Assembly (NCBI GenBank): GCA_021149145.1 | Contig: GCA_021149145.1_4322.1 | Reading direction: 5' to 3' (one strand) | From: a phage | DNA: 34,803 nucleotides | Shown: positions 22,325 through 27,059 of the stretch, one piece after another | How positions within the stretch are numbered: position 1 is the first letter of the stretch | Layout: every line of letters begins with the position of its first letter | The notes under the pieces: generated by a model | Databases searched by the model: none | Told to the model about the DNA's origin: nothing | The model's input: only the letters and a program-made list of their open reading frames with translations | Position numbers and translations under genes: made by a program

Positions 22325-22409
22325 TTTCTTTCTCTCTTTGTGTGTTTCGTTTCGATGAGTTGATAATACACCAACTCACCAGTTCGTCTTTGGAAATTCG
22401 TGCTATTTT
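22325..22409 (-). promoter_or_regulatory. promoter-leader cassette copy
   Basis: Minus strand reads AATAGCACGAATTTCCAAAGACG, 16 nt, TATTAT, then CAACTCATCGAAACGAAACACACAAAGAGAG and the ATG. The TAG in the box is the VRR-NUC stop. Confidence 0.6.
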
Positions 22410-22822
22410 CTTATCATCTCTGCGAATGCCGCAAGAAAACCCTCTCTTCCATAAGCCACCGCTGCGAAACCGCCTGATTCACTTACGCTTTTTAGGAATG
22501 ACTTTTGCTCATTGCTAACTGGGCTTGCTTGCGTTTTACCAGCCCTCTTTAACTCTATGGCGCCAAATGGATAACCGCCACGCAATGACTCAGGTATCAG
22601 AAATAAGCAGTCTGACACACCTTTGAGAAGCCCCTTGGCTTGGTCTTTTCTTGCTTGACCAATGCTCTTTTTATTTTCGTTAATCGTGTGCCAGTAAACA
22701 ATCTGCGGATAGTTGTATTTCACCCAATCAGAGCAGAAGATTTGTTCATCGTCTTCCTTTGGGCATGACTTCACCGGTCCGCCATAGAACTCGAGGTAAT
22801 CACCTTTGTCTGTGATTTTCAT
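22403..22822 (-). CDS. VRR-NUC domain nuclease
   Basis: PD-(D/E)xK core: GVSDCLF...GAIELKR...SNEQKSF. Confidence 0.65.
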   Translation of the reverse strand: MKITDKGDYLEFYGGPVKSCPKEDDEQIFCSDWVKYNYPQIVYWHTINENKKSIGQARKDQAKGLLKGVSDCLFLIPESLRGGYPFGAIELKRAGKTQASPVSNEQKSFLKSVSESGGFAAVAYGREGFLAAFAEMIRK

Positions 22823-22823
22823 A

Positions 22824-24533
22824 TCAATCCTCCATCGTAAATGATTTGTTGGCGATAATATCTTGAGACTTCTGGTTTTTACGGTGTGTGATTCTCAATG
22901 GGGCACGGAATAGATGTGCATTTGTCATAATCATTCTAGCATTACGCAATCTGCCAATTCTGAATGCCTCATTCCTGTTATCGATGTGTGTTGAGCAGAA
23001 AGCCTTCCATTTAACAGAGCAAACGCGATGGTCTGATTCAGGGAAGAATGTTTCATAAGCTCGGAATCTGTCACCACTGTGAGCCATAACCTCATATGAA
23101 GCAATAATCCCTGACTGGTTCTTTGTTAACCCAATCTTGAAGTCATAAACTCGCAACCAGTCCCCCTTACGATACATTTTTCCTGATAACTTAGCATTCG
23201 GGTCTATGAGCATCTCACCACAGCATCTGCAATTCTTAGCTGCAATATCATTCTTCTCACCGCATCCTTTCTTGATGATAGCTTTGGTCTGTGGGTCCGC
23301 CATATCTTCACACAGTATAAACTGAAAGAAGTGCTCGCAACGCTTACCGTCAATTACATTATTACAACGCCGTGCGAACGGAGAGTTCTCATAAGAACAT
23401 GCCGGGCATACCCTAGGTTCATCACCTCCTTTCCTTGATGACTTAAACTTCTGGTCCTGAACTTCTTCTATAATTGGGTCAAAGTAAAGCTCTGCCATAT
23501 CGTCAAGCGTTCCGGCGAAATCGAGAACAACATGGTCTTCTTTTACCATCCCTGAATCCTTGTGTTTTTTCTTAAGAATTCGCATACCACGACCAAGCAA
23601 CTGAATGAGTAGAGTAATGCTACCAACCTTCCTCAGGATAATGCTTGTATCCCACGGGGGGCAGTTTACGCCAGTTGTGAGGCAACCAATCTGAAATATG
23701 AACTTATATTCTCCGTTGGCTGCCTTCTCAAGTATCTCTCTACGCTTCTTCTCACCAGTGGAGTTGGTAACTATCGCCCAAGTAACACCTTCTGGAAGTG
23801 CGGCTGCCGCCTCCTCGCAATGCCGTTTGCCAGCGCAAGTTACCAATGCAGCATTCCTTGTTTCCATAAACTTAGCAGCAAATCTCATTATCTTTTGTGT
23901 CATCGTTTGGTTTTCGTGAATCTTTGCAGCCATCGCATCCATTTCTTTCTTGCTGAAGTCCTTAACCCCATCACTTCCATCAGGAGTGAACTCACTAAGG
24001 TCGTAGCCCAAATCACCAACTTCACCGTAGACAGTAGGAACAACGAACCCCAAGTCAACAAGGTAGCTGGTTGGCACTTGCATTACAGTTTTGCGCCAGA
24101 ATCCACGGACATTTGGGTTACTAACTACAATGTGGTCGTTGTTACGGTACGGGCTACCAGTTAACCCAAAGATACGAAGTTCGCGACCGTACTTCTCCCT
24201 GCATCGACGCTTCATTTCGGTAATGATTAACGTGTATTGCGCGCGACCAGTGCCAAGAAGCCCGGTATTCACACCATCCTTAAAGACCATCTCACCATTC
24301 TTCGTGCTCATCTGCTCGAATGTTTCCTCATTCTCTTCAGCTTCTACGATATCCATATGGTCCACCATGTGGCAATTATGTGCCACGACCCCGTCAGCAA
24401 TGAAATTATGGTGCTCAGGCATCTCTATATCCCAAACAAGTTCCTTGCCAATTGGTGAGATGTCTTTAATTTTGCTTGATTTTGTATTCCACGCCATTTT
24501 CCATGTGCTTACTAATTCTCTTAAAAAACTCAT
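22824..24533 (-). CDS. intein C-terminal splicing segment plus helicase C-extein (SF2 motifs III-VI, Zn ribbons)
   Basis: Residues 31-53 (ELVWDIEMPEHHNFIADGVVAHN) are intein blocks F/G, followed by Cys54-HMVD. Later motifs are GLTGSP, LTTGVN, QLLGRGMR and the CxxC clusters CPACS...CNNV, CGEK...CRCCGE. The frame is closed upstream by a stop at 24552-24554. Confidence 0.75.
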   Translation of the reverse strand: MSFLRELVSTWKMAWNTKSSKIKDISPIGKELVWDIEMPEHHNFIADGVVAHNCHMVDHMDIVEAEENEETFEQMSTKNGEMVFKDGVNTGLLGTGRAQYTLIITEMKRRCREKYGRELRIFGLTGSPYRNNDHIVVSNPNVRGFWRKTVMQVPTSYLVDLGFVVPTVYGEVGDLGYDLSEFTPDGSDGVKDFSKKEMDAMAAKIHENQTMTQKIMRFAAKFMETRNAALVTCAGKRHCEEAAAALPEGVTWAIVTNSTGEKKRREILEKAANGEYKFIFQIGCLTTGVNCPPWDTSIILRKVGSITLLIQLLGRGMRILKKKHKDSGMVKEDHVVLDFAGTLDDMAELYFDPIIEEVQDQKFKSSRKGGDEPRVCPACSYENSPFARRCNNVIDGKRCEHFFQFILCEDMADPQTKAIIKKGCGEKNDIAAKNCRCCGEMLIDPNAKLSGKMYRKGDWLRVYDFKIGLTKNQSGIIASYEVMAHSGDRFRAYETFFPESDHRVCSVKWKAFCSTHIDNRNEAFRIGRLRNARMIMTNAHLFRAPLRITHRKNQKSQDIIANKSFTMED

Positions 24534-25514
24534 CTTGTGCCGACCTCGTTGTTATTGATACTGAGTAAAGCTCTCTCTTTTTCTTGCCGCCAATATAGCT
24601 TCTAACCTTAACTCCGTCATTAGCAATAAATGCTATTAGCGCATCAACTACTGATTGAACTTCACTCCTGCTAAATGATTCGGTGTGGATTTCTACAACC
24701 CTCTTCCCTGAGCTTACAGTGCAATGACCATCATCACCAAAGTAAGCAGCCCAACCAACTGGATCAAGCTCTCTGCATATCTTTCCAATATCGTAACCAT
24801 CCTTAGAATTTCCGTACTTATCAGCATATGAATCCAGAACTTTCGTACATGATGTTGATACGCAAAACCAGTTGTCGCCAAATCCAGGGTTTTTCTTCTC
24901 CCTGTATCTAGGGTTTAGTTTTGCAAACCTTTCAACCTTGCTTAGTGCGTGCTCCTTATTTCCAATATTCCAAGATAGCCTATGCGTTCCTTTTTCTGTA
25001 TTTTTAATCAAGCAACCATCACCAGCCATTGCCGCAAGAATGTTTTGATGTAAAAAGTCATCAACCTCCATTGATGGGTTGACGGTTGAATTATGATGCC
25101 CCGTTCTGTAATCCAAATAGAAATCGAAAGGGTTCTTAAGAAGTACGCCTAACCCCTTGCTTGAATGCGGCATAACTTTTTCACCACAGCCACACTTGCA
25201 CGCAGGAGCTTTTTCGTAAATTTGTCCTGCGAGCCGTCTAGCGACAGATTCATCCCAATACGAAGTTTTCCCGCTCCTACCCAGCAGCCGTTCGAATAAA
25301 GTTTGTGTGTACTCGTGCATTTTATTTCCTCTCCGCTTTCTAATTTAATTGATGATACATGTCTTACACCATTAGTAAAAACTCTTTTTGGCTTATGATA
25401 GAAGTAATCACCAGTGCTTTCGTTTATGCATTTTATTTTATGATTGATAAGGTCTTCGCTATCAATCCTCATCATCCCTGAATCGGTGGTTATCATCGTG
25501 TCTCCAGTTAAGCA
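24375..25514 (-). mobile_element. intein element in helicase motif II (1140 nt = 380 codons)
   Basis: Bounded by AIDE|CLTGDTMI (Cys codon 25514-25512) and VVAHN|CH (Cys codon 24374-24372). The two exteins are in the same frame. Confidence 0.8.
24466..25320 (-). CDS. double-motif LAGLIDADG homing endonuclease, separate ORF nested in the intein
   Basis: Carries LAAMAGDGCL and AAYFGDDGHC and ends ...VEYKIKQN. It has its own ATG 7 nt after GGAGAGGA. Its frame differs from both intein halves, and it is closed upstream by a stop at 25345-25347. Confidence 0.75.
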   Translation of the reverse strand: MHEYTQTLFERLLGRSGKTSYWDESVARRLAGQIYEKAPACKCGCGEKVMPHSSKGLGVLLKNPFDFYLDYRTGHHNSTVNPSMEVDDFLHQNILAAMAGDGCLIKNTEKGTHRLSWNIGNKEHALSKVERFAKLNPRYREKKNPGFGDNWFCVSTSCTKVLDSYADKYGNSKDGYDIGKICRELDPVGWAAYFGDDGHCTVSSGKRVVEIHTESFSRSEVQSVVDALIAFIANDGVKVRSYIGGKKKRELYSVSITTRSAQDEFFKRISKHMENGVEYKIKQN

Positions 25515-25958
25515 CTCATCTATCGCGATAACAGCAGGAGCATAGTCACCAAGCCCCTTAAACAAGCCGTTAGCAGCCGTTCCCTCACTAGCCACTATGG
25601 TTGGATAGTAAACTGATTTAACGTTAAGGCCAGCGCAATAGACGCTATTACGGATGCCGAAATTACGAAGTTCCTCTGCGTTCTGGCTGACAATCTCTGA
25701 CTGGCGAGATAGGACCATGTAAGGAAGGCCAAGCTGTTCCATTCGTTTCCCAATCATGGCGAGAATAATCGTCTTGCCAGCCGAAACCGATAGGTCTGCT
25801 ATGAATGGCGCTTCGTACTTGCCAATAGCCTTTCCGATTGCGTCAAATGTCACGCACTGGAATGGGTATGGTGTGATTTCTCCGAACTGATAATCATTTT
25901 GAATCTGCTTGATTTTATCTTGGTCAAAGTTTGCTACTAAGCGTTCTACTGGAAGCAT
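25149..25958 (-). CDS. helicase N-extein (motifs I-II) plus intein N-terminal splicing segment
   Basis: Walker A DLSVSAGKT, then AIDE followed at residue 149 by block A CLTGDTMI and block B CTSTHKL. It stops after 121 intein residues. Confidence 0.75.
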   Translation of the reverse strand: MLPVERLVANFDQDKIKQIQNDYQFGEITPYPFQCVTFDAIGKAIGKYEAPFIADLSVSAGKTIILAMIGKRMEQLGLPYMVLSRQSEIVSQNAEELRNFGIRNSVYCAGLNVKSVYYPTIVASEGTAANGLFKGLGDYAPAVIAIDECLTGDTMITTDSGMMRIDSEDLINHKIKCINESTGDYFYHKPKRVFTNGVRHVSSIKLESGEEIKCTSTHKLYSNGCWVGAGKLRIGMNLSLDGSQDKFTKKLLRASVAVVKKLCRIQARG

Positions 25959-26044
25959 TTTAAATATCCTGATAGTTCTTTAGTTCGTTGCATTGATGTA
26001 TAATAACAGCCATAGAACCCATTGTTTAACAAAAAGTGCTATTG
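25959..26044 (-). promoter_or_regulatory. promoter-leader cassette copy (helicase operon) in a divergent region
   Basis: Minus strand reads AATAGCACTTTTTGTTAAACAA, 16 nt, TATTAT, then ACATCAATGCAACGAAC... and the ATG. The box ends 10 nt before the ATG of the divergent HTH gene. Confidence 0.55.
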
Positions 26045-26054
26045 AGGTAATGAG

Positions 26055-26528
26055 ATGTGTAAAATTGACAAGCGAACTATTAACGGCAATAACGGGACCG
26101 TCCGCACGCAAGACAAGAAGCAACGCAAGCGACCTTCAGGCTACTACGTATTGAAAGATGAAGTAAAGGCTGGTCTACGCGCGCGTCTGGAAATGATTCT
26201 TGATTTCTACGGCACGAAAGCCAATATCGCCAAGCAGTTAAATGTATCTCACCAGACTGTAGAGCAATGGTTTAATCGCGGGATGATTTCGGCTCGAGGG
26301 GCTCAGAGAGCGCATAATGCGTACAAGCGAAATAAGGAAGGGTTCCGAGCTACATTCTGCCGACCAGACCTGCAATTCGACGGTAACGGAAAGCCGCTAA
26401 CACTTCGATGCAAGAAACGCCATATGCTTCGCGTAGTTACCGAGGCAGAACTAGCAATAAAACCACCCTGTCGACCGTGGCGCAAGAATAAGATTGCTAA
26501 CGAAGCAGCACGAAAAGCTAAAGGGTAA
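26055..26528 (+). CDS. HTH DNA-binding protein (Cro/YdaS-like), basic
   Basis: Contains GTKANIAKQLNVSHQTVEQWFNRGMIS. The N- and C-terminal regions are Arg/Lys-rich. Confidence 0.6.
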   Translation: MCKIDKRTINGNNGTVRTQDKKQRKRPSGYYVLKDEVKAGLRARLEMILDFYGTKANIAKQLNVSHQTVEQWFNRGMISARGAQRAHNAYKRNKEGFRATFCRPDLQFDGNGKPLTLRCKKRHMLRVVTEAELAIKPPCRPWRKNKIANEAARKAKG

Positions 26529-26579: not shown

Positions 26580-27059
26580 ATGAACTGGCATGATTATTTT
26601 TACTATGTAGATGGCAAATTGCATTGGAAGATTAGCACTGCAAGACGTGTTAAGGTTGGCGATGAGTGCAACTCACTATCTACATCTGGCTATTACAAAG
26701 TGTCTGTTAATGGCTTTAGGACTTATGTACATAGAGTTGTGTGGGAGATGTTTAATGGATAACTTCAAAATGGCGACTACATTGATCATATAAACCATAA
26801 CAAATTAGATAACAGAATAGAAAACCTAAGAGTAACAACAAATCAAGGTAACTCAAGAAATTGCAAGCTTAGCGTTTTATCAACAACTGGTTATTGTGGA
26901 GTGGCAAAGCTAAATCACGGAAAATTTAAGGCTCACATCACGGTTGACGGCAAGCAGCTACACCTTGGTAACTTCGATACTCCAGAACGGGCGTATAAAG
27001 TAAGAATTGAAGCAGAGAGAAAATACAACTTTCACGAAAATAACGGGTTAAGCAAATGA
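26580..27059 (+). pseudogene. HNH (HNH_3-type) plus AP2-domain homing endonuclease with an in-frame TAA at 26760-26762
   Basis: The ATG follows GGAGAGAAG. Translation is MNWHDYFYYVDGKLHWK...HRVVWEMFNG-TAA-LQNGDYIDHINHNKLDNRIENLRVTTNQGN...GVAKLNHGKFKAHITVDGKQLHLGNFDTPERAY, all in one frame. The stop overlaps the primase ATG (ATGA). Confidence 0.65.

Follow-up and report, generated by a model that had tools for sequence, protein, structure and literature searches.

A LAGLIDADG endonuclease gene nested in a candidate natural split intein of a T1-like coliphage helicase

The DNA analysed here is a 34,803-nt stretch of phage sequence (GCA_021149145.1, contig GCA_021149145.1_4322.1), called the window in what follows. 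Its source is a T1-like (Drexlerviridae) coliphage, and at positions 22824-25958 it carries a helicase gene in two pieces with an endonuclease gene nested between them, all features lying on the minus strand. Each piece carries one half of an intein. The two in-frame halves, with stops between them, support the original prediction, a note made from the letters of the window, that the locus may hold a naturally split intein of the kind known from fractured genes.

A helicase gene in two pieces with a nested endonuclease gene

Three open reading frames (ORFs) make up the locus. Their coordinates and lengths, and the frame shared by the outer two, emerged from recomputation as the original prediction had given them.

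25958-25149 (-): N-ORF, 269 aa (148 extein and 121 intein residues), in the reference helicase frame
25320-24466 (-): homing endonuclease gene (HEG) ORF, 284 aa, in the +2/-1 frame (25958-25320 = 638 = 2 mod 3)
24533-22824 (-): C-ORF, 569 aa, in the frame of the N-ORF

Along the helicase frame, the N-terminal intein half (IntN), the C-terminal half (IntC) and the flanking exteins are arranged as follows.

25515..25958 (-): N-extein, 148 codons; N-part of a RadD/YejH-like SF2 helicase with Walker A SVSAGKT, ending at the DE of the DExH box
25514-25512 (-): Cys1 codon, first intein residue
25230..25514 (-): canonical IntN (intein residues 1-95), with Cys1, block A CLTGDTMI and block B CTSTHKL, to ...NLSLDGS
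25149..25229 (-): IntN run-on tail, residues 96-121 (QDKFTKKLLRASVAVVKKLCRIQARG), including the TAG stop at 25151-25149
24375..24533 (-): IntC, 53 aa counted from the first ATG, of which the final 34 (24476-24375) form the canonical part and hold blocks F/G VWDIEMPEHHNFIADGVVAHN
24374-24372 (-): Cys+1 codon, first C-extein residue
22824..24374 (-): C-extein, 516 codons and stop; Cys+1 and the H that completes the DExH box, then helicase motifs III, V and VI and a zinc-ribbon region at the C-terminus
24375..25514 (-): whole mobile element, 1140 nt or 380 codons, whose exact removal gives a 664-aa helicase

The NCBIfam RadD model runs colinearly across both pieces, with model positions 12-117 corresponding to N-ORF residues 39-149 and positions 126-569 to the C-part; in addition, the N-extein matches a PHROG DNA helicase and the C-extein matches Pfam Helicase_C. 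The Cys1 and Cys+1 codons, the 1140-nt length of the element and the regeneration of DE-CH on joining the exteins were all confirmed. Alignment of the 664-aa joined product with the intein-free helicase of phage TR1 needs no gaps (84% identity); the TR1 protein has DEAH in place of the window's DECH, with Ala at position +1 instead of the Cys found in every intein-bearing allele. At the insertion site of intein-free alleles (TR1 or Rtp), a putative target of the endonuclease, ...GCAATAGATGAG is followed directly by GCACACATGGTGGAC..., the insertion point lying between the two. The motifs quoted in the original prediction are present (CLTGDTMI, CTSTHKL, VWDIEMPEHHNFIADGVVAHN, GLTGSP, LTTGVN and QLLGRGMR), as is the succession, after blocks F/G of the C-ORF, of Cys-His-Met-Val-Asp and helicase motifs III, V and VI. 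Public annotation of this gene is misleading: in phage ES (OR466728, 3001-6135) the N-ORF is labelled 'minor tail protein' and a truncated C-ORF 'putative single-stranded DNA binding protein'. The annotation tables of ES, AN_ECEAS (PP944860), Amona and Ymer contain no feature labelled intein, and no intact helicase is annotated in the public records.

Both intein halves are recognized by NCBIfam models, intein_Nterm (TIGR01445, 33.3 bits, cut-off 24.5) at N-ORF residues 149-221 and intein_Cterm (TIGR01443, 27.0 bits, cut-off 15.6) at C-ORF residues 34-54. Taken alone, either half scores below the gathering score of Pfam Intein_splicing (21.1 and 23.9 bits, gathering score 35.8). Joined, IntN(1-95) and the last 34 residues of IntC can be aligned from end to end with the Spl DnaX mini-intein of known structure, 7cfv (E 1e-15). 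On this ground the halves jointly represent a whole class-1 HINT domain, with its break at the point where endonucleases are canonically inserted. The splice-critical residues are intact, as originally claimed: no lineage compared departs from Cys1, the Thr-x-x-His of block B, His-Asn at the intein end or Cys+1, and AHN followed by Cys is likewise invariant. CLTGD... and CTSTH are kept in 10 lineages, and IntN measures 118-125 aa across lineages. A word-index protein search with the 121-aa IntN alone returned no relatives (one candidate sharing words), which reflects a limit of the index and is not evidence of absence; tblastn against phage records recovered relatives that this search had missed.

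Between the halves, the helicase frame is closed. The original prediction had named two stops; closure stands, but the window contains 10 stop codons in this interval. No single ORF spans HINT-N, endonuclease and HINT-C, given the 10 in-frame stops and an HEG readable in frame +2 only. The halves lie on separate translation units, with IntN closing at its TAG and the IntC ORF carrying a conserved GAGG and ATG. A group I or II intron with a LAGLIDADG ORF was considered and rejected, as there is no ribozyme match and the flanking sequence reads as intein blocks that continue the frame of the exons; an Rfam search of 22700-26100 for intron-like RNA gave no match at E <= 1. A promoter and terminator scan gave no excess over chance (7 promoter-like sites versus 8.1 in shuffled sequence; 6 terminator-like sites versus 3.3 +/- 1.8).

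The features of the HEG and of its two overlaps with the intein halves are listed below.

25327..25334 (-): Shine-Dalgarno-like GGAGAGGA, 6 nt upstream of the HEG ATG; the intein frame reads S-G-E-E
25149..25320 (-): overlap 1, 172 nt, encoding IntN residues 66-121 (frame 0) and HEG residues 1-57 (frame +2)
25183..25200 (-): CKCGCG zinc-ribbon-type motif in the HEG N-terminal domain, followed by GHHN, with H75 at 25098-25096
25009..25041 (-): LAGLIDADG motif 1, ILAAMAGDGCL (G100-D101-G102), invariant columns in the HEG family alignment
24724..24753 (-): LAGLIDADG motif 2, WAAYFGDDGH (G195-D196-D197-G198), likewise invariant columns
24544..24547 (-): GAGG, 10 nt upstream of the C-ORF ATG (24533-24531)
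24497-24495 (-): second conserved IntC-ORF ATG (MAWNTK), a Met codon kept across lineages
24466..24533 (-): overlap 2, 68 nt, encoding the HEG C-terminus (...FFKRISKHMENGVEYKIKQN and stop) and the start of the IntC ORF

By its motifs and fold, the HEG product is classed as a double-motif LAGLIDADG homing endonuclease. It matches Pfam LAGLIDADG_2 (29.8 bits, cut-off 25) and is assigned to PHROG 11023. Structurally, its AF2 model (pLDDT 85.3, pTM 0.76) is closest in Foldseek to the monomeric double-motif enzymes I-WcaI and I-SceI (E 4.5e-10). The acidic motifs GDG (D101) and GDDGH (D196/D197) are invariant in the family alignment; a C-x-CGCG motif is conserved in all full-length family members and extends to the distant relatives P0035-P0044, P0066 and P0067. 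The enzyme is apparently active; indirect signs of the predicted homing are an element nearly identical between diverged hosts and the conflict of intein and extein relationships described below. With its own ATG and Shine-Dalgarno motif, it is the self-initiating LAGLIDADG ORF in another frame that had been described, and GGAGAGGA does precede its ATG, at a spacing of 6 nt and not the 7 nt first given. The start itself, ATG-CAC, is made from the block B codons aaA-TGC-ACg (Cys-Thr) and is kept in all lineages as xxA-TGC-ACx. Within the proposed class of split inteins, the intein's own constraint would shield the HEG start codon, because that start is built from the conserved Cys-Thr codons of a catalytic block.

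Conservation of the layout and selection on its reading frames

The layout recurs in close and distant relatives. Phages ES and AN_ECEAS are identical to each other over 3135 nt and differ from the window by 162 substitutions and 0 indels, with identical stops and ORFs. A tblastn search with the HEG product identified five Pectobacterium phages (Amona, Ymer, Koroua, Abuela and Sabo) that encode a 41% identical protein inside the helicase gene; the two records inspected, Amona and Ymer, have three overlapping ORFs with relative frames as in the window. Metagenome contigs share the three-ORF layout at HEG identities of ~84-85% (L012/L013), 76% (L009), 65% (L010), 54% (L006) and 44% (L007/L011), and on the longer ones the split helicase gene adjoins a divergently transcribed primase. 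The helicase frame contains 9-13 stops between the halves (counted in four representative lineages). In all lineages the Shine-Dalgarno position of the HEG holds GGAGAGG, GGGGAGG, GGTGAGG or GGAGAT, where the intein frame encodes S-G-E. Two Met codons are conserved at the head of the IntC ORF, the first after GAGG or AGGA and the second opening MAWNTK.

A HMMER search of 1.84 billion representative proteins returned only 75 relatives of the HEG product, and since the 34 closest are all 304 aa or shorter, these are separate ORFs; no in-frame (contiguous) version was found among the closer relatives (E below ~1e-20) in that set. Relatives with compensating indels that make the intein contiguous, which the original prediction had set against its own reading, were looked for and not found: the closest relatives have zero indels, and distant lineages keep three ORFs. 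These comparisons bear on the view that the true sequence is a contiguous 380-aa LAGLIDADG intein disrupted by two single-base indel errors, a view that homopolymer runs (AAAAA, TTTTTT) in both overlap zones and the almost exact abutment of the three modules, as in a contiguous intein, might encourage. It is scarcely credible given that the independently sequenced ES and AN_ECEAS show no indel relative to the window, that frames, stops and starts are maintained in seven further diverged lineages, that each reading frame has its own selection pattern, and that the in-frame version is missing from the protein set. On this sequence comparison, the error explanation is effectively refuted. The split layout is an old and stable architecture under purifying selection, not a transient one, and it recurs in other helicase families.

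Codon changes indicate which frames are maintained. Between the window and ES, the exteins differ overwhelmingly at third codon positions with no change of amino acid, with 44 synonymous and 7 non-synonymous in the N-extein and 83 and 24 in the C-extein. Other lineage pairs give dN/dS values of 0.02-0.25 for the exteins, 0.06-0.13 for the non-overlapped HEG core and mostly 0.04-0.17 for the intein halves. As judged from these substitution patterns, purifying selection acts on all five coding modules, each in its own frame. The values also speak to the idea of a decaying helicase, broken by a selfish element and dispensable to the phage, with which the lack of an intact helicase in public annotation would agree. 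Strong purifying selection on both exteins (44/7 and 83/24 against ES; dN/dS 0.02-0.25 in other pairs), exteins free of stops and indels in 10 lineages and retention of the layout in cultured, viable phages of two host genera make such decay extremely improbable.

The two overlaps are dual-coding to different degrees. Overlap 1 measures 166-184 nt in other lineages. Over its distal ~70 nt, codon-phase analysis places 16, 10 and 28 changes at HEG codon positions 1, 2 and 3, and in close pairs the HEG frame has 5-8 synonymous versus 1-2 non-synonymous codon changes, against 1-2 synonymous and 5-7 non-synonymous in the helicase frame. This stretch encodes the invariant CKCGCG of the HEG, whereas the helicase frame reads ...LLRASVAVV.... 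The last ~26 IntN residues are a run-on tail, because the distal stretch evolves under the HEG frame and encodes CKCGCG; the N-ORF does contain 121 intein residues, as first described, but this final part follows the HEG frame and not the intein frame. Over the proximal ~96 nt, between block B and ...SLDGS, the pattern is mixed, as would be expected if both frames were constrained. In overlap 2, the first ~20 aa of IntC are overprinted on the HEG C-terminus, and ATGGCNTGGAATACAAAA is nearly invariant in DNA across all lineages.

The lengths of the element in the different lineages (1140, 1143, 1149 and 1155 nt) are all multiples of three. They were considered as a sign of contiguous translation, and this was dropped because the in-frame indels fall inside the HEG, held between two dual-coding overlaps that lock the frames. 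Together with the frame shared by the halves, the lengths had pointed to a -1 frameshift in overlap 1 and a +1 frameshift in overlap 2, which would give a contiguous precursor with an in-frame endonuclease and splicing in cis; a GGGAAAA heptamer does occur in overlap 1 of the window, ES, L009, L010 and L006. L012, the Pectobacterium phages, L007 and L011 lack that heptamer, which lies upstream of IntN residues 84-95, where a slip would delete part of the HINT fold. The module boundary has no slippery sequence, and no heptamer is common to all lineages. Moreover, the HEG and IntC ORFs each keep a conserved ATG and Shine-Dalgarno motif, and two serial frameshifts would yield very little of a replication protein. 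With the multiple-of-three lengths accounted for by in-frame indels inside the HEG, frameshifting is a very unlikely route to the helicase.

Proposed trans-splicing and movement of the element

The locus probably encodes a functional, naturally split class-1 intein that splices in trans and hosts an active nested homing endonuclease. In the proposed mechanism, a single transcript would carry three ribosome-binding sites, each with an ATG, and yield three separate proteins: a fusion of helicase residues 1-148 with IntN, the endonuclease, and a fusion of IntC with helicase residues 149-664. IntN and IntC would associate and ligate the helicase parts by protein trans-splicing into a 664-aa DECH helicase, using Cys1, the block B Thr-x-x-His, the terminal His-Asn and Cys+1. 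The endonuclease would cut intein-free (DEAH) helicase alleles in co-infecting phages, and repair would then copy the full 1140-nt element together with flanking extein sequence. We infer trans-splicing from the conserved catalytic residues and from selection on both exteins.

Ligation may not be the only way in which two helicase parts could work together. They could act as a two-subunit enzyme in which the intein halves serve as association domains without ligation, as has a precedent in the fragmented NrdA of phage Aeh1, a phage gene split by an HEG whose product is assembled by interaction domains without splicing (PMC3045599). Against this stands the invariance of residues needed for splicing only, in lineages whose inteins are as low as ~52-56% identical, and the +1 position, which is Ala in intein-free alleles and Cys in every intein-bearing one. 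The split also interrupts the catalytic DExH motif, and a large HINT domain left unspliced at that point would probably disturb the ATPase site. A non-covalent enzyme is thereby an unlikely alternative to trans-splicing, if a less remote one than frameshifting.

The divergence between the window and ES is uneven. The element differs at 4 of 1140 positions (0.35%; 99.6% identity), versus 11.5% in the N-extein and 6.9% in the C-extein. Identity is 85-91% upstream, 99-100% from ~25,520 to ~23,700 (~0.8 kb into the C-extein), and 84-88% thereafter. This profile fits homing with asymmetric co-conversion; the phages are mosaic elsewhere too, and the fit is suggestive, not decisive. Between more distant lineages, extein and intein identities conflict: the window and L009 share 49-54% in the exteins and 71-82% in the intein parts, while L010 and L006 share 75-80% and 58-65%, respectively. 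The conflict therefore points to repeated horizontal movement of the whole IntN-HEG-IntC unit in the fractured state, and taken with the ES comparison the sequence pattern indicates recent horizontal movement of the element.

Several observations weigh against trans-splicing and homing as proposed here. An AF2 prediction of the IntN95+IntC34 fusion from a single sequence without alignment is uninformative (pLDDT 38.8), and charge complementarity of the halves is weak (IntN core ~+1, IntC ~-1). The 26-residue basic run-on tail of IntN and the ~20-residue extension of IntC are unusual and could make splicing slower or modulated. That the helicase is essential to the phage is an assumption. As for homing, the near-identical tract common to the window and ES could have arisen by ordinary mosaic recombination, and a second such tract, independent of the intein, lies next to the gene, where the ORF at 22403-22822 (-) is 97-100% identical to ES and the adjacent helicase C-terminus 84-88%.

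That ORF, which starts 2 nt past the helicase stop, belongs in related loci to a VRR_NUC-type nuclease family. On the other side of the locus, a free-standing HNH homing endonuclease gene lies at 26580-27059 (+), between regulator and primase genes; it encodes a protein that matches the TR1 HNH endonuclease at 96% identity but is interrupted by one in-frame stop, at codon 61 (26760-26762). ES and AN_ECEAS have no HNH gene annotated at this position, and the interval does not align with ES.

Relation to known inteins and to a wider family

The nearest described arrangement is that of the 'fractured genes', defined by Dassa 2009 from 26 metagenomic loci, in which GIY-YIG or Vsr-like endonuclease genes follow a 27-51-nt spacer and overlap the IntC ORF by 6-69 bp; the word LAGLIDADG is absent from that paper, and the original prediction had correctly named a different endonuclease family as the one found there. 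As in those loci, the gene of a conserved DNA-metabolism enzyme, of phage origin, is broken at an intein, with IntN in frame after the N-part, IntC in frame with the C-part, and a separate same-strand endonuclease gene between the halves, the 3' end of which overlaps the start of the IntC ORF (68 nt here). Unlike those loci, the window encodes a LAGLIDADG_2 enzyme, and it has a 172-nt dual-coding overlap with the start codon inside block B in place of the non-coding spacer. Its host gene is an SF2 DExH (RadD-like) helicase and not gp41, NrdA/J, IMPDH, DnaE, ligase or terminase, and its type occurs in cultured coliphages and Pectobacterium phages, not in metagenome reads only. The locus is best described as a variant of the fractured-gene arrangement, because it appears to work like one, departs from it in two features (spacer and endonuclease family) and adds dual-coding overlaps.

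In module order, with HINT-N, an endonuclease at the canonical point and HINT-C, the window resembles bifunctional LAGLIDADG inteins such as PI-SceI, PI-PfuI and PI-MtuI. Unlike in those, its HEG lies in another frame with its own start, and the intein frame is shut by ten stops. In contrast to intein-type endonucleases (LAGLIDADG_3), the HEG product is closer to the I-SceI/I-WcaI type (Pfam LAGLIDADG_2) and carries an N-terminal CxCGCG. Gosselin, Arsenault and Gogarten (bioRxiv 10.1101/2025.01.02.630785) described actinobacteriophage inteins with out-of-frame or antisense homing endonucleases and continuing phage-to-phage transfer. The window shares with these an endonuclease within the intein region whose frame differs from that of extein and splicing domain. 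The arrangements shown there have an open intein frame, a contiguous intein and an endonuclease VII-like enzyme, whereas the enzyme of the window is a LAGLIDADG protein on the sense strand and its intein is split because the intein frame is closed. Compared with the Ssp/Npu DnaE split intein, the window intein is likewise class-1 and split at the endonuclease site, with an IntN of ~100-120 aa and an IntC of ~35-50 aa, each fused to half of a replication protein. Unlike the DnaE halves, which are encoded at separate loci with no endonuclease gene, the halves here are adjacent and co-oriented and flank an HEG that is apparently active.

Related loci show graded arrangements: fully in-frame inteins, in-frame inteins with a single stop before IntC, IntN-endonuclease fusions with a separate IntC ORF, and three ORFs in three frames. 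The representative cases are listed below.

L016 (2034-4693): classic non-overlapping fractured SF2 helicase, with IntN ORF, 67-nt spacer, zinc-motif LAGLIDADG gene and IntC ORF in frames 0, 1 and 2
L017: 29%-identical endonuclease whose start is again the block B ATG-CAC, of a different helicase intein
L014 (3001-5538): SF2 helicase N-part, IntN, CxCGCG and LAGLIDADG sharing one frame, which a single TAA closes before IntC takes it up again
L018 (2501-5261): DnaX clamp-loader with the intein at Walker-B, between DE and C; IntN, two CxCGCG motifs and LAGLIDADG fused in frame
P0056, P0081, P0089: fully contiguous LAGLIDADG_2 inteins

Eighteen relatives of the HEG product begin with Met-His. The 67-nt spacer of L016 contains an inverted repeat, CTTTACAAG...CTTGTAAAA, resembling hairpins noted by Dassa et al. 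In L014, 12 nt that include a ribosome-binding site and ATG separate the TAA from IntC, and the 547-aa IntN-endonuclease protein is found on 14 contigs; judged by its sequence, the locus would be a split intein whose IntN is fused to the endonuclease, or else its stop codon would be read through. In L018, IntC and the C-extein occupy a +1-frame ORF that overlaps the first ORF by 8 nt.

A virtual in-frame intein assembled from the window (IntN 1-95, HEG 30-284 and the last 34 residues of IntC) aligns colinearly, as one segment, with the L014 intein (E 4e-30). Because of this alignment, the modules of the window abut as in a bifunctional intein, which supports an HEG at the ancestral endonuclease position. 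The original prediction had called such a locus an evolutionary intermediate; the colinearity is compatible with that description, provided that no passing stage is meant, since the layout is old, stable and maintained by purifying selection. An origin of the HEG as a free-standing gene that invaded a mini-intein was also considered, the nearest outgroups being short proteins with the same zinc motif. Either direction of evolution is compatible with P0035, which itself lies in a fractured helicase, and with P0066 and P0067, which share a frame with IntN. Among solved structures, the window intein is closest to the DnaX (clamp-loader) mini-intein 7cfv, and related LAGLIDADG_2 inteins occupy the Walker-B DE motif of DnaX, PhoH and helicases (the window was compared with 7cfv, P0056 and P0067). 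This distribution suggests a lineage that may hop among P-loop NTPase genes at one shared motif.

On balance, we lean slightly towards regarding the window as a member of a widespread, apparently undescribed class of LAGLIDADG split inteins that lie at the Walker-B/DExH motif of phage SF2 helicases, with an HEG dual-coded with both halves. A literature search of incomplete coverage, so that an earlier description elsewhere is possible, found no account of a LAGLIDADG fractured gene or of the window helicase intein. A 2024 paper (PMC11162368) states that no inteins were reported in E. coli or coliphages, and inteins are not mentioned in the paper on the Ymer genus. The architecture is conserved and apparently undescribed; it is not a new principle.

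Split inteins are rare in nature, and protein-ligation tools are built from them. The majority of those known stem from cyanobacterial DnaE or from metagenome reads of uncultured phages. If the present reading is true, this locus would give cultured coliphages their first natural split intein amenable to experiment, and since E. coli and Pectobacterium phages are cultured and easily grown, trans-splicing, homing and fitness cost would be measurable by crosses and mutants. The dual-coding overlaps also illustrate how a selfish gene can fix its start codon within a catalytic motif of the element that hosts it. The in-frame, single-stop, fused and three-ORF loci form a data set on the entry of endonucleases into inteins and on the origin of split inteins, and if these arrangements are related states, the family documents the interconversion of bifunctional and split inteins.

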